This document shows positions 1 to 10,643 of a DNA stretch of 10,643 nucleotides, piece after piece. The number at the start of each line of letters is the position of its first letter. Position 1 is the stretch's first letter. The translations under genes and the position numbers were made by a program. The stretch is from a virus (taxonomy: Duplodnaviria; Heunggongvirae; Uroviricota; Caudoviricetes), in IMG/VR virus record IMGVR_UViG_2548876868_000025. One strand, written 5' to 3'. Below the pieces are notes generated by a model. That model ran no database searches. It saw only the letters and a program-made list of their open reading frames with translations, and was not told the DNA's origin.

Positions 1-291
1 TTACCGCCGTAACCGCTCCGGCTTCTTCCAGTGGTACGTAATTTTTGCTTTTTCCCTGTACGTCTGCACGCGGCGACGGTAGGCCAGCATTTCAAGAACG
101 CGGATCCGTATGTTGCGCATATCCACATCATTAAGCTGGATACCATCACGGCGCATCACCTCAGCAACCACACGCGCGTAATTTTCGGCGGTCACGCTGT
201 CCGGCTGCGCGGTCTGTTCGTCAGCCTGCTGGCTGATTCCGGCGACGCGGCGGATTAATCCCAGTAGTTCGGCTTCTGTCATTGTGCCCAC
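1..291 (-). CDS. hypothetical protein (93-96 aa)
   Basis: Complete ORF with stop at 1-3; start is GTG at 291 or ATG at 282 (MTEAELLGLIRR...). No family recognised. Lies just beyond cos1. Confidence 0.4.
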   Translation of the reverse strand: MGTMTEAELLGLIRRVAGISQQADEQTAQPDSVTAENYARVVAEVMRRDGIQLNDVDMRNIRIRVLEMLAYRRRVQTYREKAKITYHWKKPERLRR

Positions 292-317
292 ATCGCTCTG
301 ATAGTCTGGTGTCGTAG

Positions 318-537
318 GGTCCTTCCTGGAATTATGGCCCGTTACGGGGCGGCGACCTCGCGCGTTTTCGCTATTTATGAAAATTTTTAGGGAAAAAGCA
401 GATCCGTTCTTCTTCTCTGTAACAGAATGTTTAACAATGAAAATATTAAAAAAAGAAAGGATCTTACACGAGGCATTTTAGCCAGAAAATGCCATTATCA
501 GATCCTTTCTCATTTTTGTTCAATAATTGCGCGTCTG
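318..537 (+). other. cos1: lambda-type cohesive-end site (cosN 347-358, followed by a lambda-like cosB region)
   Basis: Plus strand reads cgttacg GGGCGGCGACCT cgcgcgttttcgctatttatgaaaattttt, nearly identical to the phage lambda left end as recalled. Downstream blocks ccgttcttcttc, aaaagaaagga, tcctttctc and tttttgt mirror lambda cosB R-site/IHF-region sequence. Confidence 0.75.
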
Positions 538-1080
538 TTACTCGCCTTTCTTCTGTAGCAACTTTTCCGGTACGTTTCCGGTTGTTTCTTTCAAGTAATC
601 AGCCAGTATCTGTGGGAGGTTGTCGGCAACTCTGGCACTGGCATTACAGGCTTTAACCACTTCCCTTTTAAGCCTATCCAGCATGGCGGGGGTAATCTGT
701 GGGAAGCTCCTTTGCATAGTAAGCGGGAGGCTGTCCATGATTGATGAAATCTGACTCGCCAGCTTTGAAAGCGCGTACAGGCAAAACTCAGTATCAATCA
801 CGTTACCGCGATCGCGCTCGTTTTTAAGTTCCTGCGCCTCCGCCTGTACTGTCAGTAATCTGATCCTGACTCGTAAGAGTTCATCATCATCAATCTCGCC
901 TTTGTCGTTTGTAAGCTGGCTAATTGCATTGTTAACCCTATTGTCTATCACGCTGGCAACATCATAAAACGCCTCACGGCCTTTACGTTCAACGGGTGTC
1001 ACTCCCCACTTGTCGAACGCTGTCGCACTTACACGGCAGCTTTTCGCCATGTTTTTTTTGTTCATCAGGTGCGATTTCAT
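538..1080 (-). CDS. terminase small subunit, lambda Nu1-like
   Basis: 180 aa. The C-terminal half aligns by eye to lambda Nu1 (RLLTVQAEAQELKNERDRGNVIDTEFCLYALSKLASQISSIMDSLPLTMQRSFP versus RLTRAQADAQELKNARDSAEVVETAFCTFVLSRIAGEIASILDGLPLSVQRRFP). N-terminal NKK...W motif is in a similar position; alternative start is ATG at 1065. A cos site lies about 135 bp upstream, as in lambda. Confidence 0.85.
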   Translation of the reverse strand: MKSHLMNKKNMAKSCRVSATAFDKWGVTPVERKGREAFYDVASVIDNRVNNAISQLTNDKGEIDDDELLRVRIRLLTVQAEAQELKNERDRGNVIDTEFCLYALSKLASQISSIMDSLPLTMQRSFPQITPAMLDRLKREVVKACNASARVADNLPQILADYLKETTGNVPEKLLQKKGE

Positions 1081-1120
1081 TAATACACCAACTTAATTAC
1101 TGCTTCAGGTTGGTGTATTG
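1081..1120 (-). promoter_or_regulatory. Inverted repeat (11-12 bp arms, 16-nt spacer) abutting the terS start codon
   Basis: taATACACCAAC (1081-1092) and GTTGGTGTATtg (1109-1120) are reverse complements. On the minus strand the 3' arm ends 2 nt before the terS ATG. Confidence 0.5.
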
Positions 1121-1180
1121 TTTGCATCTTTCCCTTTTCATTCATAAAGATAGAGCAAACAACAAAACCACCACCGCCAA

Positions 1181-1256
1181 CCCGAAAAGGCTCATAAATA
1201 GCGAAAATCCGCGAGGTCGCCGCCCCGTAACGGGTCCATATGCCGGAAAGGACCCG
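1181..1256 (-). other. cos2: lambda-type cohesive-end site (cosN 1214-1225 on the minus strand), upstream of and colinear with the Nu1-like gene
   Basis: Minus strand reads acgggtcctttccgg...cgttacg GGGCGGCGACCT cgcggattttcgctatttatga. The core 23 bp is identical to cos1 and the upstream flank resembles the lambda right end (ACGGGTCCTTTCCGG). Confidence 0.75.
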
Positions 1257-1257
1257 T

Positions 1258-1280
1258 AAAAAAAGCCGGATTTCTCCGGC
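1258..1280 (-). terminator. rho-independent terminator after the 137-aa gene
   Basis: Hairpin GCCGGAtttcTCCGGC (1265-1280) followed on the minus strand by a 7-U run (1258-1264), 5 nt after the stop at 1286-1288. Confidence 0.7.
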
Positions 1281-1285
1281 CTGTC

Positions 1286-1699
1286 TCAGATGGTTTTCAG
1301 TATGCGATCGATGTCGCGGTCATCGCCCGGCTTTCTGCCATCGTATGCCATGCCTGCTGATACGGCTTGCGGGCTGTGCATGTCCATAAAGTTTTCAAAG
1401 GCTGCGGTAAGCTCTGGTGCAACCTTCTGGCGTTCCTGCTCTATGGTCATGCTAAGGATGCTTTTAGCCGTACCAACATCGATACAAGGCACGTTTGCCA
1501 TTGCACGTAACAGCGGCTGATAGTCGCCAGATTCATCAAGCGCCATAATCGCATCAGAGCGCGGCTTGTCCTGCTCTTCCAGTTTGTTGAGTTGATATAC
1601 GGCCTCGTAGGTTGATAACCCTCTGTCAGCCATTGCCCGCGCTTCGGCTTTAAATTTACTCGCCAGCGGTAGCGTCATGATGCTTTCATTCGTTGCCAT
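1286..1699 (-). CDS. hypothetical protein (137 aa), last gene of the capsid operon
   Basis: ORF tightly packed after the gpD-like gene (12-bp gap) and followed by a terminator. Sits where lambda has FI, but no similarity to a known family could be confirmed. Confidence 0.55.
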   Translation of the reverse strand: MATNESIMTLPLASKFKAEARAMADRGLSTYEAVYQLNKLEEQDKPRSDAIMALDESGDYQPLLRAMANVPCIDVGTAKSILSMTIEQERQKVAPELTAAFENFMDMHSPQAVSAGMAYDGRKPGDDRDIDRILKTI

Positions 1700-1711
1700 C
1701 GTTCCCCCTGC

Positions 1712-2056
1712 TTATCGCGCCAGCGGCTGAACGGATACGCCAGAACCCGCAAAGGCGGCGCATTTTTTCGCATCGGTGTCGACGCTCTCAGGCCAGTTAA
1801 CGGCGGCGATATTAAATATCCCCGTCTTATAGCACTGTGCTGATTTCTGCGTCGACGTGTCAACGGGGTACGAGGTCAGATAAACAGCCTTGCCAGATTC
1901 CTGACCATCCCACGGCTTAAACTCGCCATTGTCCGCCAGCATCAGCGGGGTAAATTCCTGAATAACGCCAGCATCAGCGGCAAAATGTACCAGCGTCGTT
2001 GATACCTGCTGACTGCCTGCAAATAACTCAATGTATGGAGTGTTCATAGAATCCAC
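1712..2056 (-). CDS. head decoration protein, lambda gpD-like
   Basis: 114 aa. TPLMLADNGEFKPWDG...CYKTGIFNIAAVNWPESVDTDAKKCAAFAGSGVSV parallels lambda gpD TPLMLDTSSRKLVAWDG...[35 protein letters not shown]. Only 2 bp separate it from the capsid gene. Confidence 0.8.
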   Translation of the reverse strand: MDSMNTPYIELFAGSQQVSTTLVHFAADAGVIQEFTPLMLADNGEFKPWDGQESGKAVYLTSYPVDTSTQKSAQCYKTGIFNIAAVNWPESVDTDAKKCAAFAGSGVSVQPLAR

Positions 2057-2058
2057 CG

Positions 2059-3114
2059 TTAACCAATTTTGACGGTAACAAATTTTCGAATATCTGCCGG
2101 AACAGGCTGCGGTGCGCTGTGTGTCTGCACGTACTCAATCGCCGGATCGCCGTCTTCAATCCAGTTTTTCGGGTAAAACATGTTTTGCGTTGCGCCCGTT
2201 CTTACCGCTTCCTGTTCCATAATCGCACCATAGGCCACCAGCCCTTTATTGTTGGTGTTGCCCAGGACCAGCAAATCAGGCTCAAGGAAATATTTTTCTG
2301 TGCCGTCGCTGTCAGTGTATTTGCCGGAATAGACGATAAGGGCCAGATCACCAAGATAGCCTTTAAAGCTCACCACTTCGCCCAGGTTTTTACATGCCAG
2401 CTCTGCGGCGGATTCTGAACCACGGGAGAGATCGTACAGTTCACGGAATTTTTTAAAGCTGCGTAACATGCGCCATACATCAACGCCCATAATCATGACG
2501 TTGGCGGGGCAACCTGCCTGATCTGCGTATAGTTCAATGTCATATATTGGGTCGTGTATGTCTTTATCCTGCTCAGACCATTTTTTACCGTCGGCCTGCT
2601 CTATGATGTTTTTTTCCGGTATCTTCCAGTCGATTTCATAGCGTTCTATGCCTTCGCCCTCAATGATGTTTTTTCCGGTCGTTACCGCATTCACCGCCAG
2701 CCATTCAACGCGTGCCTTAATGGCGTTTATCTGGCGGCGCATGTTGCCAGTAATCAGGCGCATACGGCGGTAGGTAGGATCGTTAAGCTGTGCCGGATCT
2801 TCTCCAGCCATGCGCATTATTGTTTTTAATGGATCGATTTCGTGTTTTGGCTTCATGTAGCCAGGGCGGATAATGCTGGTTTCGTACCCTTTATCGCGCT
2901 GAACCTGGCTGCCAACCATAGGCGAACAAAACGCCGACATAGTGACTTCTTCAATATCCAGGTTATCTAACATGATGTCCTGCGTGTTGAATGTCGCCAC
3001 GTTCGGGAAAAACAGCGCGGTAAACAGCGGACTAAATTTAAATTCCGCAATATCCTCGCGATTCAGGTACGCGAAAAGCTGGTGTGTGTTAAGTGCTATT
3101 GCTTTGACTGCCAT
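2059..3114 (-). CDS. major capsid protein, lambda gpE family
   Basis: 351 aa. Multiple blocks match lambda gpE: FKFSPLF/FKFDPLF, RPGYMKPKHEIDP/TPGYVKPKHEVNP, EDPAQLNDPTYRRMRLI/EDPQNLADPAYRRRRII, YPKNWIEDGDPA/YPKNWVTTGDPA. Length matches gpE (341 aa). Confidence 0.9.
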   Translation of the reverse strand: MAVKAIALNTHQLFAYLNREDIAEFKFSPLFTALFFPNVATFNTQDIMLDNLDIEEVTMSAFCSPMVGSQVQRDKGYETSIIRPGYMKPKHEIDPLKTIMRMAGEDPAQLNDPTYRRMRLITGNMRRQINAIKARVEWLAVNAVTTGKNIIEGEGIERYEIDWKIPEKNIIEQADGKKWSEQDKDIHDPIYDIELYADQAGCPANVMIMGVDVWRMLRSFKKFRELYDLSRGSESAAELACKNLGEVVSFKGYLGDLALIVYSGKYTDSDGTEKYFLEPDLLVLGNTNNKGLVAYGAIMEQEAVRTGATQNMFYPKNWIEDGDPAIEYVQTHSAPQPVPADIRKFVTVKIG

Positions 3115-3320
3115 TATTCGCCCCCATAATTTTTGTGCATCCCAAGCGCCGCAAGTAAATAAGATCGCACAAGTGAACCTATCGACGGCTCCGGCGTCAT
3201 CAGCGGATCCAGTCCAGCCGCAACGCCAGCTTCATAGTTTTTTTTGTGGCGCTGCTTGAGCACCTCCACGATTTCGGGGCTTATGTACACCGAAACACCG
3301 CCTTTTTTCTCTTCAGCCAT
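3114..3320 (-). CDS. small protein (68 aa) translationally coupled to the capsid gene; possible ribbon-helix-helix fold, or a small scaffold-like factor
   Basis: TAATG stop/start overlap with the capsid gene. SD-like AGAGGAA upstream of the ATG at 3320. VSVYISPEIVEVLKQ resembles an RHH beta-strand plus helix; function unassigned. Confidence 0.5.
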   Translation of the reverse strand: MAEEKKGGVSVYISPEIVEVLKQRHKKNYEAGVAAGLDPLMTPEPSIGSLVRSYLLAALGMHKNYGGE

Positions 3321-3349
3321 AGTAAGAAATTCCTCTTCGACTAAAAAAA

Positions 3350-3410
3350 TTATAACTGGATGTTTATCCAGTCCTGATTATAATCAGAATTGCATTTTAT
3401 GCAATGATAT
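3350..3410 (-). promoter_or_regulatory. Candidate sigma70 promoter of the capsid operon, overlapped by three palindromes
   Basis: On the minus strand: TTGCAT, a 16-bp spacer, then TATAAT. Palindromes TTGCATtttATGCAA (3391-3405), CTGATTATAATCAG (3374-3387, containing the -10) and CTGGATgtttATCCAG (3356-3371, near the expected transcription start). Confidence 0.5.
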
Positions 3411-3485
3411 TGAGTTATGTTGCAAATTATGAAATGATTATCCCGATCACGAACGCCAGTGCATCCAAAAACCTCATATGCAAAA

Positions 3486-3523
3486 GCCCGATAAGAACCC
3501 TCTGACCTTATCGGGCTTTTTTT
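3486..3523 (+). terminator. rho-independent terminator oriented on the plus strand, with no obvious plus-strand gene upstream
   Basis: Perfect 10-bp stem GCCCGATAAG / CTTATCGGGC (3486-3495 and 3507-3516) followed by 7 T (3517-3523). Confidence 0.6.
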
Positions 3524-3529
3524 GGGCGC

Positions 3530-3551
3530 AAAAAAGCCGGATTGCTCCGGC
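3530..3551 (-). terminator. rho-independent terminator after the 74-aa gene
   Basis: Hairpin GCCGGAttgcTCCGGC (3536-3551) followed on the minus strand by a 6-U run (3530-3535). Confidence 0.7.
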
Positions 3552-3571
3552 TATGTGTGCTGTGTGCTGGC

Positions 3572-3796
3572 TCAGTCTCTGATCTCTTTCAGAAATTCTA
3601 TCAATGCATCTATCTGTTCAGGATTTACCGCCAGCATTTCACCGGATAGAGCACATCTCACAAAACCATGCTGATCCTTTTCAATCAGTGCGCCCGTCTC
3701 CAGGAATGCGCGGTAATCATTGATGCTCATCGTCTCCATGTTGTCAGCATGGTATTTATCACGCTGTTTTAATATCTCATCAAATTTCATCGGCAT
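3572..3796 (-). CDS. hypothetical protein (74 aa), stand-alone transcription unit
   Basis: ATG at 3796 with a GAGGAA SD 9 nt upstream. Bracketed by terminators at 3893-3915 (upstream) and 3530-3551 (downstream). No family recognised. Confidence 0.55.
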   Translation of the reverse strand: MPMKFDEILKQRDKYHADNMETMSINDYRAFLETGALIEKDQHGFVRCALSGEMLAVNPEQIDALIEFLKEIRD

Positions 3797-3892
3797 TGTT
3801 TTTTTCCTCTGTTGTGTCTGTTTGTTTCAGATAGTAACTATGCCTGACCGTGACGAAAACCCGGTAATGCGCCATACCGTTTCAACTGGTGC

Positions 3893-3915
3893 AAAAAAAG
3901 CCGGATTTCTCCGGC
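3893..3915 (-). terminator. rho-independent terminator after the 90-aa gene
   Basis: Hairpin GCCGGAtttcTCCGGC (3900-3915) followed on the minus strand by a 7-U run (3893-3899); the stop codon is at 3923-3925. Confidence 0.7.
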
Positions 3916-3922
3916 TGTTTGA

Positions 3923-4195
3923 TTAGCTGTCTTGGTAATTGCGCCATATTTCATCACCAGCACCATCTATACCCATTTCGGCATAAGTGCGATCGACTGC
4001 CTTTTTCAGGTCTCCGAAATTATCCGGCGGCTCCGGTGCCCTCTGTGCCTTCCTTGAACATTCCAGCCGTCGCATCGTGATGTGATGCCGTTCCTTGTCT
4101 GTCTCCACCAGCTGCATGACTTCACCCCATCGCGCCGCCGCCCTCCGGTAAAAGCCTTTCGCCTCCAGTTCCTCCGCTATGCGGTCATGTACCAT
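3923..4195 (-). CDS. hypothetical small protein (90 aa); weak resemblance to ANR-type small regulators
   Basis: ATG at 4195 preceded by GAGGGGG. The longer 130-aa reading frame would overlap ssb, so the short start is preferred. Motif IAEELEAKGFYRRAAARWGEV resembles an ANR-like helical pattern, unverified. Confidence 0.45.
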   Translation of the reverse strand: MVHDRIAEELEAKGFYRRAAARWGEVMQLVETDKERHHITMRRLECSRKAQRAPEPPDNFGDLKKAVDRTYAEMGIDGAGDEIWRNYQDS

Positions 4196-4205
4196 CGTCA
4201 CCCCC

Positions 4206-4616
4206 TCAGAACGAAATATCATCACCGTAAGGGTCATCGCCTCCCGCTGGTGGCTGATTACCCTGTGTGCCTGTGGTTTTGCGTCTGTTCCCGCCTGGAC
4301 GTGCCGCGCGGGCACTGATTACGCTGTCTGCGATAACCTGCCAGCCCTGCCGCGTTTCTCCGTTCTGTCCGGTCCACTGGCTTACCTGCATCGTGCCGGA
4401 TACGCTGGCAACATCGCCTTTTTGATGTTTAGCCAGGAAGTCGGCCTGTTTGCCAAATGCGATGACCGATAACCATAACGTCGCCTGTCCGTCCTGTGCC
4501 TGGCTGCATGGCAAAGATACCGCCATACGCGCCAGCGTCATCGGTGTGCCCTTGCTGGTCTGTTTTACCTGCGGGTCGTCCACCAGCCGCCCGTAAGCGG
4601 CTATCTGTGCCGTCAT
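4206..4616 (-). CDS. ssb: single-stranded DNA-binding protein
   Basis: 136 aa. OB-fold-like core (LWLSVIAFGKQADFLAKHQKGDVASVSGTMQVSQWTGQNGETRQGWQVIADSV), Gly/Pro/Gln-rich linker and acidic C-terminal tail DDPYGDDISF, comparable to the E. coli SSB DDDIPF tail. ATGA overlap with the upstream gene. Confidence 0.85.
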   Translation of the reverse strand: MTAQIAAYGRLVDDPQVKQTSKGTPMTLARMAVSLPCSQAQDGQATLWLSVIAFGKQADFLAKHQKGDVASVSGTMQVSQWTGQNGETRQGWQVIADSVISARAARPGGNRRKTTGTQGNQPPAGGDDPYGDDISF

Positions 4617-4882
4617 AATTCCACCTCTCCGGTTTTAACGTTGATGGTTGTTACCTGTTCCGCTTCGGCAATCTCCCGTTCTGTCAACGTGGCAAAGTTT
4701 GCCGCTGCTGTGGTCATGAATGCGCTTATCAGGTCGGGATGTTCCTTCGCGTATCCTTCCCCTGCGTGGCGGTCTATTACCCTGATTGCCACCTTTAAGG
4801 CGTGCTCTGTCATGTCTAACGCTTTATATTTCGGCTCTGTTCTGTCTCTGCGCATTTTGGTTATCTCCTCACTCATGCTCAC
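4613..4882 (-). CDS. hypothetical protein (87-89 aa), translationally coupled to ssb
   Basis: Start is GTG at 4882 or ATG at 4876, with GTGAGG upstream. No family recognised. Confidence 0.55.
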   Translation of the reverse strand: MSMSEEITKMRRDRTEPKYKALDMTEHALKVAIRVIDRHAGEGYAKEHPDLISAFMTTAAANFATLTEREIAEAEQVTTINVKTGEVEL

Positions 4883-5068
4883 TTTTACGCCTCACTTTTT
4901 AAAGCGTCTCGCTTCGTCTCACTTGAGATTTTTGTGTTTTGTATGCGCATGTTTCATAAGTGTTTTTTTTACGCCTCACTTTTGAGCATGTATACAGGTG
5001 AGAAAGTGAGCAATCGTGTTAATATTTTGTAAAAACCTCACCATTACTCACTTTTGCTACTCACTTTT
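4878..5068. repeat. Iteron array (candidate replication origin) immediately 3' of the replicase gene
   Basis: CTCACTTTT direct repeats at 4878, 4891, 4975, 5047 and 5060, a variant CTCACTTGA at 4918 and an inverted copy in GTGAGAAAGTGAG (4998-5010). An AT-rich tract lies between them (4921-4970). Confidence 0.6.
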
Positions 5069-6465
5069 TACAGTGGTCCTACATCATCACCATCAATGTA
5101 AATCACGGCGTCTTTTTCCAGTTTGGCTAACCATCGCCGCATATTTTTCACGTCATACCCAAGCCGTTTCATGTCATCACGTAACAGCGGGATCGTGCAC
5201 TTGTCGCCGTTCTGTGTACGTGAACGGATGCACCCCCATAGCGCGGTATGGTTTTCCGTCTTGTTGCCTGCCTCCTCGATGCGCTCCAGTTCAACGGGAG
5301 GGCGCGGCTTATCCACCACCACCAGCGACGTGATTAACTCCCCGTCAGCGTCGGTAAAAAGCTCCACCACGCGTAAGTCATATGCGGCTTCTTTGAGTTC
5401 CTCCGCGTCCTTCATTTTGGTGCATGAGATAACCAGCGCTTCGCTGCCTGCGTCCTCCCTGCGTATCCGGTATTCAGCGTCCAGTGATGCACGAAATGCA
5501 CTGGAACCACGCGCCCCCTTTGTTTCATCCTTGCCGGAATGGTGAACCACCAGCACCGTGGCCCCTGTGCGCCGTTTCAGTTCGTCACAACCACGGATAA
5601 ACGCCCCCATATCACGGGAATCATTTTCATCATTACCACCAAAGCAACGCGCCAGCGTATCCAGAATAATCATGCGTACAGGTTTACCCGTTTCCCGCTC
5701 CACCTGACGGGCAGCGATAACCATTTCATCAACATCAAACGGGGCAGCCGGAAAGATGGGACGGTTTACCAGGTACAGATTTTTCACCTGCTCACCGTGC
5801 ACAACTTCCCACGCTCTCACGCGACGCGGTACACCAATACCGCCTTCACCAACCACATAGAGGACCGCACCATGTGCAACCCTGCGGCCTCCCCAGTGGC
5901 GACCCGTTGAAACGTGACACGCCCACGAACCAGCAAGGAACGACTTATATGAACCGCTCGCCCCGTATATGCTGCATAGCGACGATGCCGGAATAATCCC
6001 CTTTACCACGTAATCTAATTGCGTGTCGTATCCGGCAGATCCAACGCTCATCGGTAGCGTGGTTTTTCGCTGGTGGCTCAGGCTTTCCCCGCGTTCCCAT
6101 GTCTCCCTAAGCCGTGGAAGCTGGTCGCTCCATTCCTCCAGCAATTCGAAATTTTCAGAAAACAGGCGCGCTTCCTGGACTCCTGCGATTGCCAGTTTCG
6201 TGGCGATGGTTAACAACTGCACTTCGTCAATATTTCCGGCACGTATCACTTTCGCCCTGAACCGACCTTTATCAACAATCTGCAAGTTATCCAGTTCGCT
6301 TAACTGATAACGCCCCAGGTAAACGGGAGGGACTGGATCGCCTGCTTTTTTGGCCTGTGCAATGATGTAGTGCTCTGCAAATGAGTGAGCATTATCACCC
6401 GCAAAAATAACCGCTTCGGTGTGTTTATCTTTCGGTAACAGTTTTACATTCGGTGCCAGTTTCAT
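5068..6465 (-). CDS. replication protein with a RecA-like/AAA ATPase core (primase-helicase-type replicase of P4/PICI-like elements)
   Basis: 465 aa. Walker A GASGSYKS and Walker B-like MIILDT followed by an acidic stretch; unassigned N-terminal domain of about 150 aa; C-terminal DNA-binding-like tail. ATGA overlap with the upstream gene. Confidence 0.85.
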   Translation of the reverse strand: MKLAPNVKLLPKDKHTEAVIFAGDNAHSFAEHYIIAQAKKAGDPVPPVYLGRYQLSELDNLQIVDKGRFRAKVIRAGNIDEVQLLTIATKLAIAGVQEARLFSENFELLEEWSDQLPRLRETWERGESLSHQRKTTLPMSVGSAGYDTQLDYVVKGIIPASSLCSIYGASGSYKSFLAGSWACHVSTGRHWGGRRVAHGAVLYVVGEGGIGVPRRVRAWEVVHGEQVKNLYLVNRPIFPAAPFDVDEMVIAARQVERETGKPVRMIILDTLARCFGGNDENDSRDMGAFIRGCDELKRRTGATVLVVHHSGKDETKGARGSSAFRASLDAEYRIRREDAGSEALVISCTKMKDAEELKEAAYDLRVVELFTDADGELITSLVVVDKPRPPVELERIEEAGNKTENHTALWGCIRSRTQNGDKCTIPLLRDDMKRLGYDVKNMRRWLAKLEKDAVIYIDGDDVGPL

Positions 6466-6761
6466 TTTTTACCCCTGAATCCGTTAATCATGGTTTTCAG
6501 CTTCTGGATGTTTGCCCGTGCCCTGGCGTTGCTGGTGGGCACGTTATGCGGCGCGGTCTGTACCAGAGAAAAATCACGCCGGAACTGATAAACAGGCATC
6601 ACGCAATCATATTCGTAACCTTCACGGCGGTAAGTTACGCACCGTCCCGCCACGCCCTTAATCATTACCGTGCCGCCGTACTGGTCGCGGTAAATATCAC
6701 CGCGCGTAAATTTAGGGTGAGTGTTGCCACTGGCAGTTAAGCCAGAATATTTAAGTTTCAT
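6462..6761 (-). CDS. hypothetical protein (99 aa), coupled to the replicase gene
   Basis: ATG at 6761; stop overlaps the replicase start (ATGA). Beta-rich-looking sequence; no family recognised. Confidence 0.55.
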   Translation of the reverse strand: MKLKYSGLTASGNTHPKFTRGDIYRDQYGGTVMIKGVAGRCVTYRREGYEYDCVMPVYQFRRDFSLVQTAPHNVPTSNARARANIQKLKTMINGFRGKK

Positions 6762-6766
6762 TATTT

Positions 6767-7000
6767 TTATTCTCCGGTGTGCTGTTCTTTATATCTGTCG
6801 TGCAATAGATCTATTTCTTGCAGTTCCATTATTACAGGCTCAAGTAGAGTTATTAATGCCGTGGCAATCCGTGATTTTTGTTTGTCTCGTTCATTATCGC
6901 CAAGCGTTTCAAGCCATATGCGCAACATTTCCATCATGATTTCACTGTGAGAAAGTGCAAGAAATGCGCGGTCTATTGTTTCGAGGTAAATATCACGCAT
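6767..7000 (-). CDS. hypothetical protein (77 aa)
   Basis: ATG at 7000 (MRDIYLETIDRAF...), preferred over the TTG at 7039 given in the ORF track. Helical-looking; no family recognised. Confidence 0.45.
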   Translation of the reverse strand: MRDIYLETIDRAFLALSHSEIMMEMLRIWLETLGDNERDKQKSRIATALITLLEPVIMELQEIDLLHDRYKEQHTGE

Positions 7001-7001
7001 A

Positions 7002-7151
7002 TTAATTACCGTCCGTTGTTTTATTTTCTTTCGTGCCAAGTAAGAAAAAGGCCGCTCTTATCAGTTCGGATATTGCAGAAAGCGCATCAGCCGCATCATC
7101 AGATACGCCGGAAAATTCCTGTTTCAGGGAATTAAAACGATCATCACGCAT
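7002..7151 (-). CDS. hypothetical small protein (49 aa)
   Basis: ATG at 7151 overlaps the upstream stop (ATGCGTGA); its stop lies 1 nt before the next ATG. The longer version from 7199 would overlap the upstream gene by 56 nt. Could be non-coding. Confidence 0.3.
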   Translation of the reverse strand: MRDDRFNSLKQEFSGVSDDAADALSAISELIRAAFFLLGTKENKTTDGN

Positions 7152-7365
7152 AACCCCCCCCATTTTCACAATCAGCAATAAGAATATTTTTAGCGTCATT
7201 CAGCGACCGCGTGGCGGTGTATCGGATACATTCCAGGGCGAACAATGTGTATTCTTCCCGTTCTTCCTTTTGTGCAAGCCCTGCTGTGCATTCAATATCA
7301 ATAAGTGCGTGCATCAGCGTAGTGAGCGCGGCGGCTGCTGCGTCCGGTGTGGTTTTATTGTGCAT
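7144..7365 (-). CDS. hypothetical protein (73 aa)
   Basis: ATG at 7365 with AGGGGA 7 nt upstream; overlaps the last codons of the Icd-like gene B. No family recognised. Confidence 0.45.
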   Translation of the reverse strand: MHNKTTPDAAAAALTTLMHALIDIECTAGLAQKEEREEYTLFALECIRYTATRSLNDAKNILIADCENGGGYA

Positions 7366-7528
7366 AGGTTTTCCCCTGACGAATACGGGCGACAAAAATC
7401 AGATGTGCGTGCGGCAACCTGGCGCGGGCTTCGCGTTCAGTGGCTGCGGTAACGGTGTAAATATCAATGCTGCTGTGGTGGCACTGCATAAAGCGCCAGA
7501 CAAAGTAAGGGCGTGCGAATACAGCCAT
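7355..7528 (-). CDS. Icd-like small protein, copy B (57 aa)
   Basis: ATG at 7528 with GGAG 8 nt upstream. FVWRF...TEREARARLP...FVARIRQG pattern, paralogous to copy A; TEREAR motif recalled as typical of P4-type Icd-like proteins. A longer in-frame reading from 7822 cannot be excluded. Confidence 0.55.
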   Translation of the reverse strand: MAVFARPYFVWRFMQCHHSSIDIYTVTAATEREARARLPHAHLIFVARIRQGKTYAQ

Positions 7529-7814
7529 GTGAAAGGCTCCCAGATGAAATTTAAGGAGTCTCGCTACTACGCTGTCAAACATGGTGGCGAGACGTAACAG
7601 GGTTGACAGACTGGTCATCTGGAAACCAGCGAGCGCAAAGGCTCCCCCGTTACGCCCCGCCATAATGCGGGTATGGGTAGGTTTACGGACACAAAAAAAC
7701 CGCTTATCGGATATGGGCGGCTGTCCGCCAGATGTATTCAGGCTGTCAAACCCGGTCGCCATGTGGGCGACGGGTGAAGCATACAGCCCCGTGATAATTT
7801 TTTGCAAGCGGTTT

Positions 7815-8012
7815 TTACGCATGATGTGACCCCTGACGAATACGAGCGGCAAATACAGCAACACAACCTGACGGGCAACGGCTACGCGCTTCGCGTTCCG
7901 TCCAGGCGGTTACGTGGATGATTTGAGATTCTCCGGCACTCAGGGCCAGAAAACGCCACACAAAGGCCGTTTGTGTGTGTACAAGGTGTGGTATATGATT
8001 TACGGCAACCAT
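7815..8012 (-). CDS. Icd-like small protein, copy A (65 aa)
   Basis: ATG at 8012 with GGAG 4 nt upstream. MVAVNHIPHLVHTQTAFVWRFLALS...WTEREARSRCP...VFAARIRQG aligns with copy B. Confidence 0.6.
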   Translation of the reverse strand: MVAVNHIPHLVHTQTAFVWRFLALSAGESQIIHVTAWTEREARSRCPSGCVAVFAARIRQGSHHA

Positions 8013-8141
8013 AACGGCTCCTAGTTTACGTTGTTGGTTAGAAGCCCCGTTACTGCTCCTACAGTGCGGGGCTTTGCTTTTTGTGTTGATTGTGTGTAAT
8101 GTGTCATTACACATAAATACATTACATGAGGTGTAATTAAC
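8013..8141. promoter_or_regulatory. Divergent control region between the Icd-like operon and the RHH gene, with operator-like inverted repeats and a hairpin
   Basis: Inverted repeats GTGTAATG-tgt-CATTACAC (8094-8112) and ATTACA-tgagg-TGTAAT (8121-8138, overlapping the RHH SD). GC hairpin GCCCCG...CGGGGC (8044-8072) followed by a T-rich tract on the plus strand. Confidence 0.5.
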
Positions 8142-8321
8142 GTGTCAACACACAAAAACGAAAGGCGTGGTAATCCTCCGTTCCAGTTCCGTTTAGATCC
8201 TGACTTACGGGAAAAGATGGAAAAGGCACAACAACAGGACGGCGATGATTCTCTTGCTGCCTGGATAAAGCGAATAATCCGCAAAGAATTACAGCAACGC
8301 GGCATAGAACCCAAAGGATAA
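8142..8321 (+). CDS. Arc/ribbon-helix-helix family DNA-binding protein (candidate repressor)
   Basis: 59 aa, GTG start with GAGG 10 nt upstream. PPFQFRLDPDLREKMEKAQQQDGDDSLAAWIKRIIRKEL fits the RHH beta-strand/helix/helix pattern. Not in the ORF track (below its length cutoff). It is the only convincing plus-strand gene. Confidence 0.7.
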   Translation: MSTHKNERRGNPPFQFRLDPDLREKMEKAQQQDGDDSLAAWIKRIIRKELQQRGIEPKG

Positions 8322-8644
8322 AAACTATCAGCGCCGTGGTGTGAGGAACTCCGGCGCATTGCTTTACAGGCGCACACAATGACCAACGAAGAATCAACCA
8401 AAAAAACATCACCTGCACGAAAAAGACGACGCAGAAAGAAAGAGCATGAATCAGAACGATTCGCGCCGTGTTCTTTTGCCCTTGAGAAGTACCTTAAAGA
8501 ATACTCATCAAAGGAGAGAGCTTCGCAGTTATGGAAACGCACTGAAACAGACTGATAGCATTGCCCACCAGCCTGATAGCGGCTATCATGCCCTGGCTTA
8601 TGTTTGTTGACACATAATGCGCAGCGGGTTAATTGTTCAGAAAG

Positions 8645-8671
8645 GCGGCTCCATATCGGGGCCGCTTTTTT
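8645..8671 (+). terminator. rho-independent terminator oriented on the plus strand, ending the RHH transcription unit
   Basis: 8-bp GC-rich stem (8645-8652 paired with 8658-8665, one G-U pair), 5-nt loop, then 6 T (8666-8671). The minus-strand tail is weaker (CTTTCTG). Confidence 0.65.
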
Positions 8672-8697
8672 CGTGTTCGTCATATGAGATACACCCG

Positions 8698-8904
8698 TTA
8701 AGCAGCCGTTACGCGCGCTTCCTGTTCGCGTTCTTTCATCCAGGCGATTACGTCATCCTCATACCATCCCCGACGGCGTAAACCAACACGAAAACCCTGC
8801 GGGAATTCTCCGGCGTTGATCATGCTTTGCAGCGTGCTGTCTGCCTTGATGTGGATAAGTTTTTTTACTTCCTGGCGAAAGATGACTTTTTTGATTGCTT
8901 CCAT
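8698..8904 (-). CDS. alpA: AlpA-family transcriptional regulator / excisionase-like protein
   Basis: 68 aa. ...STLQSMINAGEFPQGFRVGLRRRGWYEDDVIAWMKERE fits the AlpA/Vis pattern (HTH, G-FP, conserved W, C-terminal W). AAGG SD upstream. Located just downstream of int, as in P4-like and PICI elements. Confidence 0.85.
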   Translation of the reverse strand: MEAIKKVIFRQEVKKLIHIKADSTLQSMINAGEFPQGFRVGLRRRGWYEDDVIAWMKEREQEARVTAA

Positions 8905-8981
8905 CGTGATTTACCTTGTGAATCCGGTGTATTCCGGTGACAAATACGGTAAATCATCGAATATGGGTAAAAACAGTTCCC

Positions 8982-9008
8982 ACCGTTTTTAAACGGTTAT
9001 AACCGTTT
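8982..9008. promoter_or_regulatory. Palindromic operator-like site upstream of alpA
   Basis: Perfect 16-bp palindrome AACGGTTATAACCGTT (8992-9007) overlapping an ACCGTTT-tt-AAACGGT inverted repeat (8982-8997); three ACCGTT-type half-sites about 90 bp upstream of the alpA start. Confidence 0.4.
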
Positions 9009-9037
9009 TTTATGTTGATGATTTGAAAGGGAATTAT

Positions 9038-9060
9038 AAAAAAAGCGGCATTTCTGCCGC
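9038..9060 (-). terminator. rho-independent terminator downstream of int and the 76-aa ORF
   Basis: Hairpin GCGGCAtttcTGCCGC (9045-9060) followed on the minus strand by a 7-U run (9038-9044). Confidence 0.65.
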
Positions 9061-9072
9061 TTTCAGGGAGTG

Positions 9073-9303
9073 TTAACGCCACTTTCTTGGCCTGCCTCCG
9101 GTTTTCATGGATGCCGGACGTACTACCCTATCAATACTTACCGCCAGATTTCTGGAAGCCCCGCGGGATACCAGAAAATCTACTACCTGTTTTTTTGATG
9201 GGGCTGTCGTTCTGTCCTCCGGATCGTAGGTTGACCAAAATTCATGCTGAACCATCAGGGCCAGTTGCAGCCCGTCGCAATTGCATCTGATATTTTTTTG
9301 CAT
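9073..9303 (-). CDS. hypothetical protein (76 aa), doubtful
   Basis: ORF between int and alpA with a terminator 12 nt after its stop, but no convincing SD and an unconvincing composition. Could be non-coding 3' region of int. Confidence 0.25.
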   Translation of the reverse strand: MQKNIRCNCDGLQLALMVQHEFWSTYDPEDRTTAPSKKQVVDFLVSRGASRNLAVSIDRVVRPASMKTGGRPRKWR

Positions 9304-9401
9304 CTTAACGGTTTCATGTTTCGCGGCCTTGTCGTTAAATTTGGTGCAATTATACGACGGTTTTGCATGGTTTTCGTAGTTTTTACTGGTTTTCTGTACA
9401 G

Positions 9402-10643
9402 CTACACGGCCCGAATACCCCTTTTACCACTGGCAAGGGTTACGCCCGTTGCCGCCGCCTCGACAAATTCGCCCCACCAGCGCATAAGCACAATGCGTTT
9501 TTCTATGTAGTTGCTCCGGTTGTATGCCCGTCTCACTTCGTTGGTGTCCACGTGGGCTAGTGCGGCCTCGATTACGTCCGGCTCAAATCCTTCTTCGTTC
9601 GCTGCGGTGCTGAATATGGCGCGCATACCGTGAGAAACCAGAATCCCGCCAAACCCCATCCGCCGCAATGCTGCGTTTGCGGTCTGGCTGTTCATAGGCT
9701 GCCGTGGGTCTTTCAGGCTCGGGAAAACATAATCGCGGTGGTGGCTGATTGGTTTCATGGCCTCCAGTACCGCCATGGCCTGACTACAAAGCGGGATAAC
9801 GTGATCACGCCGCATCTTCATGCGTCCGGCGGGTATCGTCCATTGTTGCGCGTCCAGGTCGATTTCTTCCCAGCGTGCTGACGATGCTTCAACCGGACGG
9901 GTTACAGTCAGTAACTGCCATTCAATCAGTAATCTGGTCTGCCGTTCTGTTGCCGATACTGATAAAGCCTGCATAAGCTCCGGCAACTGTTCGGGGCGGA
10001 TTGTTGGCATATGTTTTTTTACAGGGGAGGGGAACGCCTTACGCACATTCATAGCCGGATTGGTATCAATCAGCCCACTGTTGGCGGCGTAATCCATTAC
10101 CTCATTAATTCGCTGCAAAACCCGCTTTAGTGTTTCCAGGTTGCCACGTTCCTTGATGGGGGTAAGCACCTCAACGAACCTGCGAGCGGTCAGGGTGTCT
10201 ATTGGCGTGTTGCCGATGAACGGGAATACATATTTTTCCAGCGAACGCCAGATGTCTTTAATCGTGTTGGGGGCCAGATTCTGGCTGATTTTCACCTGGT
10301 ACCATGCCGCCGCCACATTTTCGAACGTGTTCCCTTGTCTTCGGGCCTCTGTCTCTCTTTTTTGCCTCTCGTGGTCCTGCGGGTCAGTTCCGGCACTGAT
10401 TAACGTCCTGTACTCGCTACGGCGTTTTCTGGCATCAGCCAGGGAAACATCTTCAAGCGATCCAAAACTCAGCAATATTCTTTTTTTGTCCGATGGTCGG
10501 TAGTAGGAAAATCTCCAGAGTTTTGATCCAGACGGTTTGACCAAGAGAAAAAGCCCTCCGCCGTCCTGCAGGGTGTACTCCTTTTGCGCTGGTCTGGCTG
10601 CTTTGATCTGCACTGTGGTTAATGGGTGTGTTTTTCTCGCCAT
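9402..10643 (-). CDS. int: tyrosine site-specific integrase, P4 family
   Basis: 413 aa. N-terminal arm-type DNA-binding region (LTTVQIKAARPAQKEYTLQDGGGLFLLVKPSGSKLWRFSYY) and C-terminal catalytic region with HGMRAIFST (H-x-x-R) and a tyrosine in RRAYNRSNY. The start codon is the last three bases of the window. Confidence 0.95.
   Translation of the reverse strand: MARKTHPLTTVQIKAARPAQKEYTLQDGGGLFLLVKPSGSKLWRFSYYRPSDKKRILLSFGSLEDVSLADARKRRSEYRTLISAGTDPQDHERQKRETEARRQGNTFENVAAAWYQVKISQNLAPNTIKDIWRSLEKYVFPFIGNTPIDTLTARRFVEVLTPIKERGNLETLKRVLQRINEVMDYAANSGLIDTNPAMNVRKAFPSPVKKHMPTIRPEQLPELMQALSVSATERQTRLLIEWQLLTVTRPVEASSARWEEIDLDAQQWTIPAGRMKMRRDHVIPLCSQAMAVLEAMKPISHHRDYVFPSLKDPRQPMNSQTANAALRRMGFGGILVSHGMRAIFSTAANEEGFEPDVIEAALAHVDTNEVRRAYNRSNYIEKRIVLMRWWGEFVEAAATGVTLASGKRGIRAV

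Follow-up and report, generated by a model that had tools for sequence, protein, structure and literature searches.

An antisense RNA cassette of the C4/CI type separates two Icd-like genes on a satellite-like island of Escherichia coli and probably lies within a conditionally translated frame

Two Icd-like genes, named for a putative host cell division inhibitor, follow each other in a 10,643-nucleotide stretch of caudoviral DNA (IMG/VR record IMGVR_UViG_2548876868_000025; the whole stretch is called the window below), and the spacer between them raises the question whether it encodes an N-terminal extension of the second gene or carries a promoter or an RNA element. Every gene of the window is on the minus strand, and positions are therefore given in descending order. 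An earlier annotation that worked without database searches (the sequence-only reading) had described these two genes, which we call copy A and copy B, and a repeat-containing spacer of 287 nt. Both genes and every listed sequence feature were found, and the repeat-containing spacer is present, with a length of 286 nt (7814..7529). We consider it probable, with good confidence, that positions 7822–7528 constitute the immunity cassette of an antisense-RNA switch of the P4/P1 type, located on a satellite-like island at tRNA-Pro of E. coli DEC9B. The spacer encodes a C4/CI-type antisense RNA, which probably lies inside a conditionally translated frame, as in satellite phage P4.

Scanning of the whole window against Rfam returned three matches, all within the spacer and in the 5'-to-3' order c4-a1b1, isrK, C4 (Table 1). 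For comparison, the C4 model scores 68.8 bits in phage P1 and 74.9 bits in P4. Positions 7759..7570 have approximately 78% DNA identity to the c4 region of P1 and its relatives (blastn). The P1 record lists promoter P1c4 (formerly P51b), a1, b1, the 77-nt C4 RNA, a2, b2, and icd in this order, and each of these immunity features maps onto the window by pairwise alignment with indels of 1–2 nt. Because of this DNA alignment, homology of the leader to the annotated a1 and b1 sites of P1 is clear despite sub-threshold scores of the c4-a1b1 and isrK models; the c4-a1b1 match of P4 itself is also below threshold (44.1). The 3' end of the window RNA, GCCACCA, resembles that of P1 C4, and the mature molecule would be processed from the leader of its own operon by RNase P and other activities, as for P1 and P4. 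The hairpin recognized in the spacer by the sequence-only reading is present and is the first hairpin of the c4-a1b1/isrK motif.

The C4 fold was compared across 16 diverse sequences from E. coli satellites, P1, P4, Budvicia, Neisseriales, and Burkholderiales. Its 23 base pairs are formed in 99.5% of cells, with compensatory changes on both sides in nine pairs; none of 500 shuffles equaled this and slid controls reached 29–51%. The long closing stem and the two internal hairpins are thus borne out by compensatory changes. Outside the b sites, the spacer is 94–99.6% identical among 15 loci with tandem Icd-like genes, while copy A is 54–100% and copy B 77–100% identical, which argues that constraint acts on the nucleotide sequence of the spacer. 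A structured small-RNA element had been considered plausible from what is known of P4, with a comparison of structure conservation across related elements as the proposed check; the Rfam C4 match, the homology to P1 c4, and the covariation of the fold now support it.

The direct repeat GTTTGACAGC occurs exactly twice in the window on the gene strand (7751..7742 and 7580..7571), as previously noticed. As a bare 10-mer it is statistically unremarkable (at least two matches in 40 of 200 shuffles, one mismatch allowed), and its significance lies in covariation and in being complementary to the C4 loop: the two copies are the a1/a2 target pair of the C4 a' segment. The second C4 loop, b', is complementary to b1 in the leader and to b2 downstream of a2. 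Site b2 overlaps the Shine-Dalgarno sequence of copy B (GGGAG, 7541..7537) and abuts or overlaps a Shine-Dalgarno sequence in every lineage; the b'-b2 duplex has a predicted energy of −15.0 kcal/mol, and 1 of 500 shuffles was equally good.

Loci sharing the a' core were gathered from IMG/VR and from species-representative genomes. Among the contigs of the latter, a 17-mer core matched 34 loci, about 14 of which carry the cassette as judged by reading (Neisseriales, Burkholderiales, Budvicia, Escherichia); the remainder have no cassette around the match. In the combined set, a1, the loop, and a2 are present in 77 loci, and the b' loop has 24 different sequences. Each of these matches its own b2 over 7–10 nt, and all but one match their own b1 over 7–9 nt (L003, 4 nt only). 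The longest perfect match averages 7.2 nt for b1 and 8.0 nt for b2 in cognate pairs versus 2.6 and 3.2 nt in non-cognate pairs, and 7 nt are reached by 1.4% (b1) and 2.4% (b2) of the latter. The window's own b' loop is found only on satellite-size contigs (4–16 kb), and a search for P1-type phages carrying it gave none. The a sites can also switch: in L110–L112, which are otherwise identical to L044 across the cassette, a1 and a2 have changed from TTGACAG to TTAGCAG and a' from CTGTCAA to CTGCTAA. This triple change shows selection on RNA–RNA complementarity. It also excludes the earlier interpretation of the TTGACAGC repeats as two −35-like boxes, because these loci altered both repeats along with the a' loop.

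Table 1 Features of the immunity cassette and its flanking genes in the window (position 1 is the first nucleotide of the window)
Feature	Position	Strand	Basis
C4 antisense RNA (RF01695)	7667..7580	minus	Rfam, 71.6 bits (gathering score 45), E 9.3e-13, full-length 1-87
c4-a1b1 (RF03163)	7784..7735	minus	Rfam, 45.7 bits, 1 bit short of gathering score 46.7
isrK (RF01394; P4 seqA)	7771..7693	minus	Rfam, 35.3 bits, under gathering score 50
Predicted mature C4-type RNA, ~79 nt	~7661..7583	minus	Homology to 77-nt P1 C4
Leader with a1/b1 targets (P4 seqA / IsrK-like)	7784..7735	minus	Rfam models and alignment to P1 a1/b1
First leader hairpin, GTCGCC-CACAT-GGCGAC	7771..7755	minus	First hairpin of c4-a1b1 / isrK motif
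Second leader hairpin, a1 in loop	7754..7739	minus	
Terminator-like hairpin and U7 run (7699..7693)	7728..7685	minus	3' hairpin of isrK model and fold
a1, UUGACAG	7749..7743	minus	Complementary to a'
b1, CAUCUGG	7734..7728	minus	Complement of b'; 8 nt after a1
b' loop, CCAGAUG	7622..7616	minus	Second C4 loop
a', CUGUCAA, single-stranded C4 segment	7609..7603	minus	
a2, UUGACAG	7578..7572	minus	Complementary to a'
b2, UCAUCUGG	7547..7540	minus	Complement of b'; after a2
Icd-like gene copy A, 65 aa	8012..7815	minus	NCBIfam NF033153 'phage_ICD_like' (host cell division inhibitor Icd-like), 64.7 bits
Icd-like gene copy B, 57 aa	7528..7355	minus	NCBIfam NF033153, 52.9 bits
Long open frame, 155 codons	7822..7355	minus	ATG overlaps copy A stop (ATGCGTAA); ends as copy B
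Candidate internal promoter, TTGCAA (7807..7802), 18 nt, TATGCT (7783..7778)	7807..7778	minus	Positional homology to P1c4
Candidate upstream promoter of copy A, TTGACA (8148..8143), 16 nt, TGTAAT (8126..8121)	8148..8121	minus	Read from sequence

The spacer is also open in the frame of copy B, and the ATG that overlaps the stop of copy A (ATGCGTAA) is where the sequence-only reading placed it. This long frame spans a1b1, C4, and a2b2; openness extends back to a GTG at 7864, and within the spacer the copy B frame contains no stops versus four and seven in the other two frames. RefSeq/PGAP annotates copy A as a 65-aa protein and the 155-aa open reading frame (ORF) from 7822 as 'Icd-like protein' (WP_001230907.1), with no RNA feature, and an older annotation of DEC9B called copy B in its 57-aa short form. 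Of 12 unique satellite-type sequences (on 4–17 kb contigs in all but two cases), 11 keep the in-phase frame open all the way from upstream of a1 to the start codon, whereas it is closed in 17 of 20 P1-type sequences, the stops in P1-type phages lying 33–42 nt upstream of icd, and in all four sequences of another group from large contigs. Budvicia has it open as well, as do five beta-proteobacterial loci from four lineages (L007 and L032 being near-identical); the three of these five that were checked have integrase/AlpA-like genes upstream and a downstream gene that is not Icd-like. When non-P1 lineages are counted, 8 of 11 have the in-phase frame open, compared with 0 of 22 for the other two frames (Fisher p = 1.2e-5). 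In the window, L011, L012, L023, and P4, the long frame starts in overlap with the stop of the gene upstream. Pfam searches with the extension and with neighboring small ORFs yielded no match. The 75-aa members of the protein cluster of the 155-aa product were discarded as an unrelated downstream protein joined through a fusion. In L067 (1–2180 of the oriented locus), the in-phase frame is open over 1926 nt upstream of Icd, giving a 723-codon ORF with a junk-like translation that probably runs antisense to a gene encoded by the opposite strand.

Whether such a spacer is an N-terminal extension or an RNA element is a false dichotomy, since P4 has eta and the nested kil around its CI RNA. In the P4 record (NC_001609), a 137-aa 'cI gene product / transcriptional repressor' coding sequence (8168–8584) is kept over the CI RNA, and the record has no features for CI RNA, kil, or eta. 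By Rfam, this ORF contains the C4-family CI RNA, with seqA/isrK just upstream, and its C-terminal 48 residues are Icd-like (NF033153, 73.9 bits). The P4 frame is open from 8821 to 8168; methionines at 8767/8764/8761 would give products of 199/198/197 aa that overlap the stop of ORF88, and the methionine at 8365 one of 65 aa, and they are eta and, nested within it, kil. In published work on P4 (PMC10111431; reportedly also Forti et al. 1999), the long frame is translated only from an upstream regulated promoter, which prevents Rho-dependent termination. P4 Kil is a truncated Eta produced upon read-through, the full-length protein arises solely from a late promoter further upstream with its translation coupled to that of the alpA homolog, and translation of eta prevents termination (PMC10111431). 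The same study reports that the Rfam C4 and isrK models match several Gram-negative phage-inducible chromosomal islands (PICIs) (PMC10111431). By analogy, the 155-codon frame of the window parallels eta and copy B parallels kil. Both systems have a C4-family RNA inside a long frame that ends Icd-like, a long-frame start that overlaps the upstream stop, a (candidate) promoter internal to the long frame, and an Icd-like stop overlapped by the start of the next gene. They differ in that the a and b sequences of the window are both unlike those of the P4 left-operon leader (PLL/PLE, seqA, CI RNA, seqC), and the upstream coupling partner is a second Icd-like gene instead of the alpA/vis homolog. 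In its gene content, with capsid, decoration protein, and small terminase, the island resembles a capsid-forming PICI, unlike P4 with sid/psu/delta. Termination in P4 is Rho-dependent (timm) and would be so in the window by analogy only.

The P1 immunity region immI (P51/P1c4 promoter, a1 b1, c4, a2 b2, icd, ant1/2) has an identical order of parts. Besides the 78% DNA identity from a1 to a2, both share identical a' and a sites (CUGUCAA/UUGACAG), a promoter at the same position, and b2 at the ribosome-binding site of an Icd-like gene. In contrast to P1, the window has the b' loop CCAGAUG instead of CACUAAC, satellite replication genes instead of an ant gene downstream of icd, an open instead of a closed frame across C4, and an extra Icd-like gene upstream of the cassette. 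Salmonella Gifsy-1 isrK-orf45-anrP (small RNAs IsrK and STnc1160) likewise combines an a1b1/seqA-like RNA and a leaky terminator with a subsequent C4-like processed RNA, over which runs an ORF that is conserved in nucleotides and not in amino acids. This orf45 is translated and coupled to the next gene (PMC4825925). It stops where the next gene starts (AUGA), whereas the frame in the window is fused in phase with copy B. IsrK has been published as an activator there, the gene downstream is antirepressor-like and not Icd, and the isrK model is under threshold in the window.

Modeled on P1 immI and the P4 left operon, the switch could operate as follows. A weak constitutive promoter downstream of copy A would produce an untranslated leader, from which the C4/CI RNA would be excised. 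Its exposed a' and b' segments would bind newly made transcripts at a1/b1, upstream of the RNA, and at a2/b2, downstream of it, pairing at b2 would hide the ribosome-binding site of copy B, and the untranslated RNA would then end prematurely, leaving the downstream replication genes off. On transcripts from a promoter upstream of copy A, ribosomes that have completed copy A would re-initiate at the ATG at 7822 and read through the cassette, and this translation would make these transcripts insensitive to C4. Copy B stands after b2 at the position that icd has in the alignment to P1, and is the analog of P1 icd and P4 kil.

Both promoters of this model are candidates. A strict sigma-70/terminator scan of 7100–8450 reported no promoter and no relevant terminator, and the promoter calls thus rest on positional homology. 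The internal candidate lies just past the copy A stop and inside the long frame, and its predicted start (~7771) is where the isrK match begins. Its P1 equivalent is TTGACC, 17 nt, TATAGT (annotated P1c4), and P4 has TATAGT (PLE). A hexamer pair (TTGnnn/TAnnnT) occurs at a fixed distance upstream of a1 in most aligned lineages and is less clear in four beta-proteobacterial loci (L003, L007, L009, L023). By this analogy to P1c4/P51b and PLE, the internal promoter would be constitutive; its conserved position relative to P1c4 renders plausible the internal promoter that the sequence-only reading had suggested. For the upstream candidate, the −35 hexamer and the promoter position are conserved in the O157:H7 island (L109).

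Several points weigh against a cassette with a translated bypass. The c4-a1b1 and isrK matches miss their gathering scores (45.7 vs. 46.7 and 35.3 vs. 50 bits), the internal promoter, with its 18-nt spacer, agrees with the consensus at 8 of 12 positions and went unreported in the strict scan, and promoter use, RNase P processing, Rho-dependent termination, and long-frame translation are all taken over from P1 and P4. Lineage grouping and the tally of 8 of 11 were made by hand, and openness is partly inherited with the conserved RNA sequence, the lineages being incompletely independent. In L100, which has the same Icd B, the long frame is closed by a deletion of 1 nt from the U-run. In L072, indels of −1 (at b1) and +1 (in the b' loop) move ~37 extension codons into another frame before the phase is restored. 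The extension is thus not conserved as an amino-acid sequence, and possibly the long frame can be dispensed with. By codon position, the spacer has 5, 5, and 11 variable columns among the 15 tandem loci; the Icd genes in the same test have no third-position excess either, their variation being patchy and mosaic. In a rival explanation, C4 is real and the spacer purely non-coding, the 155-codon frame never being translated, its openness an inherited by-product, and the RefSeq coding sequence over-extended. The unconserved peptide and the conservation of all three codon positions fit this explanation, as do the stops close to icd in P1-type phages and the older 57-aa annotation, and we regard it as a serious, if clearly less probable, contender. 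It is opposed by the openness of the in-phase frame in 8 of 11 non-P1 lineages as compared to none for the other frames, by the indels of L072, which compensate and keep the frame, and by the start–stop overlap in several lineages. It also has to contend with P4 eta, which is reported to be translated and required for read-through (PMC10111431), and with the translated orf45 over the C4-like RNA of Gifsy-1 (PMC4825925). The pattern in L072 and L100 is expected if the act of translation matters and not the peptide, and leaves room for a dispensable frame.

Activation of the IsrK type, in which a short a1b1 RNA ending at the U7 run would act in trans on read-through transcripts and open their structure, so that the frame over C4 and the downstream gene are translated as described for Gifsy-1 (PMC4825925), is not exclusive of the P4/P1-type switch, and we deem it unlikely. 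It would account for the isrK match with its terminator-like 3' hairpin and U-run, for the AUG at the C4 5' end (7663) in frame with copy B, and for the conserved stem that encloses the terminator-like hairpin (GCGGAC, 7728..7723/GUCCGU, 7690..7685). This stem covaries by lineage (GCGGGU/GCCCGU, GCGAAU/AUUCGC, GCAGAC/GUCUGC; P4 GCGAC/GUCGC), its 5' arm adjoins b1, and a small hairpin GGCGG-ACAG-CCGCC could compete with it, which suggests alternative structures, as at the isrK locus. However, the isrK score is under threshold, the locus is far closer to P1 c4, the a and b complementarities are both kept, which fits C4 repression, and the terminator hairpin is weak here (5-bp stem, 13-nt loop). 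That the region yields nothing but a single 155-aa Icd-like protein, as annotated in RefSeq, with no functional RNA and with repeats that are −35 boxes or chance, is already contradicted, and we give it practically no weight. In its favor are the PGAP call, the exact protein sequence recorded on 187 contigs, and the −35 consensus TTGACA. Yet the C4 score is far above threshold, fold and targets covary, L110–L112 have lost TTGACA at both repeats while keeping complementarity to a', and residues 1–98 match no Pfam or NCBIfam domain, the Icd model covering residues 107–149 only. The sequence-only reading had named peptide evidence for a single 155-aa protein as refuting a separate small gene; such a peptide would not refute the RNA element, and satellite lineages keep the frame open.

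The P4/P1-type cassette separates two genes of one family. Both copies score above the curated cut-off of NF033153 (25 bits) and are Icd-like by family match, inhibition of cell division being putative; they share 47% identity. They had been described as tandem paralogs, which holds for their common family, while their arrangement is a recombination mosaic with a breakpoint at the conserved 3' end of Icd and not a local, in-situ duplication. Copy A with its leader has ~98% DNA identity to the single Icd gene of the O157:H7 island, and this similarity does not extend beyond the conserved 3' terminus of that gene (codons ARIRQG). Strongly differing copy A alleles lie upstream of a nearly invariant cassette among the tandem loci, and an upstream Icd is confined to the window-like lineage (16 of 79 loci). 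Rfam found no C4 match upstream of copy A in the window or in the O157 island, and copy A thus has no C4 cassette of its own. The stop of copy B is overlapped by the ATG at 7365 of the next ORF (ATGCACAATAA). Copy A (ATGCGTAAAAACC), copy B (ATGCACAATAAAACC), and P4 kil (GTGCGTAATAAAAAA) are followed by similar junctions, and the long frame therefore seems to begin as the gene normally found behind Icd does. Four tandem loci (L056, L060, L072, L083) have a third, weak Icd-like match beyond copy A, ~670–740 nt upstream of the C4 core (17–20 bits, ad hoc profile). In the O157:H7 island, RefSeq annotates a 594-nt 'Icd-like pseudogene, missing C-terminus' (1829–2422) upstream of the copy-A-like gene; this stretch has no NCBIfam match and no Rfam C4 match.

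A more far-reaching scenario is tentative, and we think it rather improbable as a whole. In this scenario, the highly variable copy A would have replaced the alpA homolog as the translational launch pad for the eta-like frame in this E. coli satellite lineage, copy A would be expressed only from a possibly repressor-controlled upstream promoter and copy B repressed by C4, and the hypervariable b' loop would serve as an immunity barcode. With at least 24 b' variants and a switchable a1/a'/a2 set, co-resident satellites and P1-type phages would avoid or exploit mutual repression.

The window matches E. coli DEC9B (NZ_CP074760.1) with 100% identity and belongs there to an island inserted beside tRNA-Pro/yejM. 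Annotated island genes include an integrase, an AlpA-like helix-turn-helix protein, a RepA-family helicase, SSB, PerC, a small terminase subunit, a lambda-E-type major capsid protein, and a decoration protein. The whole window (1–10643) is a satellite-like island at tRNA-Pro, and its genes are those of a capsid-forming PICI, not of P4. Divergent from the candidate copy A promoter is a 59-aa ORF (8142–8321, plus strand) with a ribbon-helix-helix-like sequence (FQFRLDPDLREKMEKA), weak similarity to YlcI/YnfO (NF041551, E 5e-4, under cut-off), and no match in a Pfam search. An inverted repeat (TTGTGTGTAATG/CATTACACATAA, 8090–8116) adjoins this promoter. The ORF and the repeat look like a repressor and its operator, by which the upstream promoter could be regulated. 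The next gene downstream of copy B (7002–7365, minus strand) is a frameshifted pseudogene in RefSeq; it is represented in the window by two overlapping ORFs (7365..7144 and 7199..7002) and is one gene in relatives.

Elements of this kind are well known, as C4 of P1 and P7, CI of P4 with seqA/seqC, and IsrK with STnc1160, and no new principle is contained in these results. Specific to this locus are the Icd-like upstream coupling partner, the b' loop confined to satellite-size contigs, and an annotation that hides the RNA. The RefSeq records examined have the 155-aa coding sequence and no RNA, which makes the key regulator of the island and its four targets invisible to users; the 137-aa 'cI protein' ORF still kept in the P4 record is a parallel in annotation history. 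The locus is a clean natural case of three-way compensatory evolution, in which the b' loop changes in concert with b1 and b2 and, in a single lineage, the a' segment with both of its targets, a1 and a2; such co-changes define immunity specificities among satellites and P1-like phages. The open frame in satellites, as opposed to the closed frame in P1-type phages, provides a simple comparative signature of the 'translate through' bypass of the immunity region of the P4 eta type, and a transferable rule.

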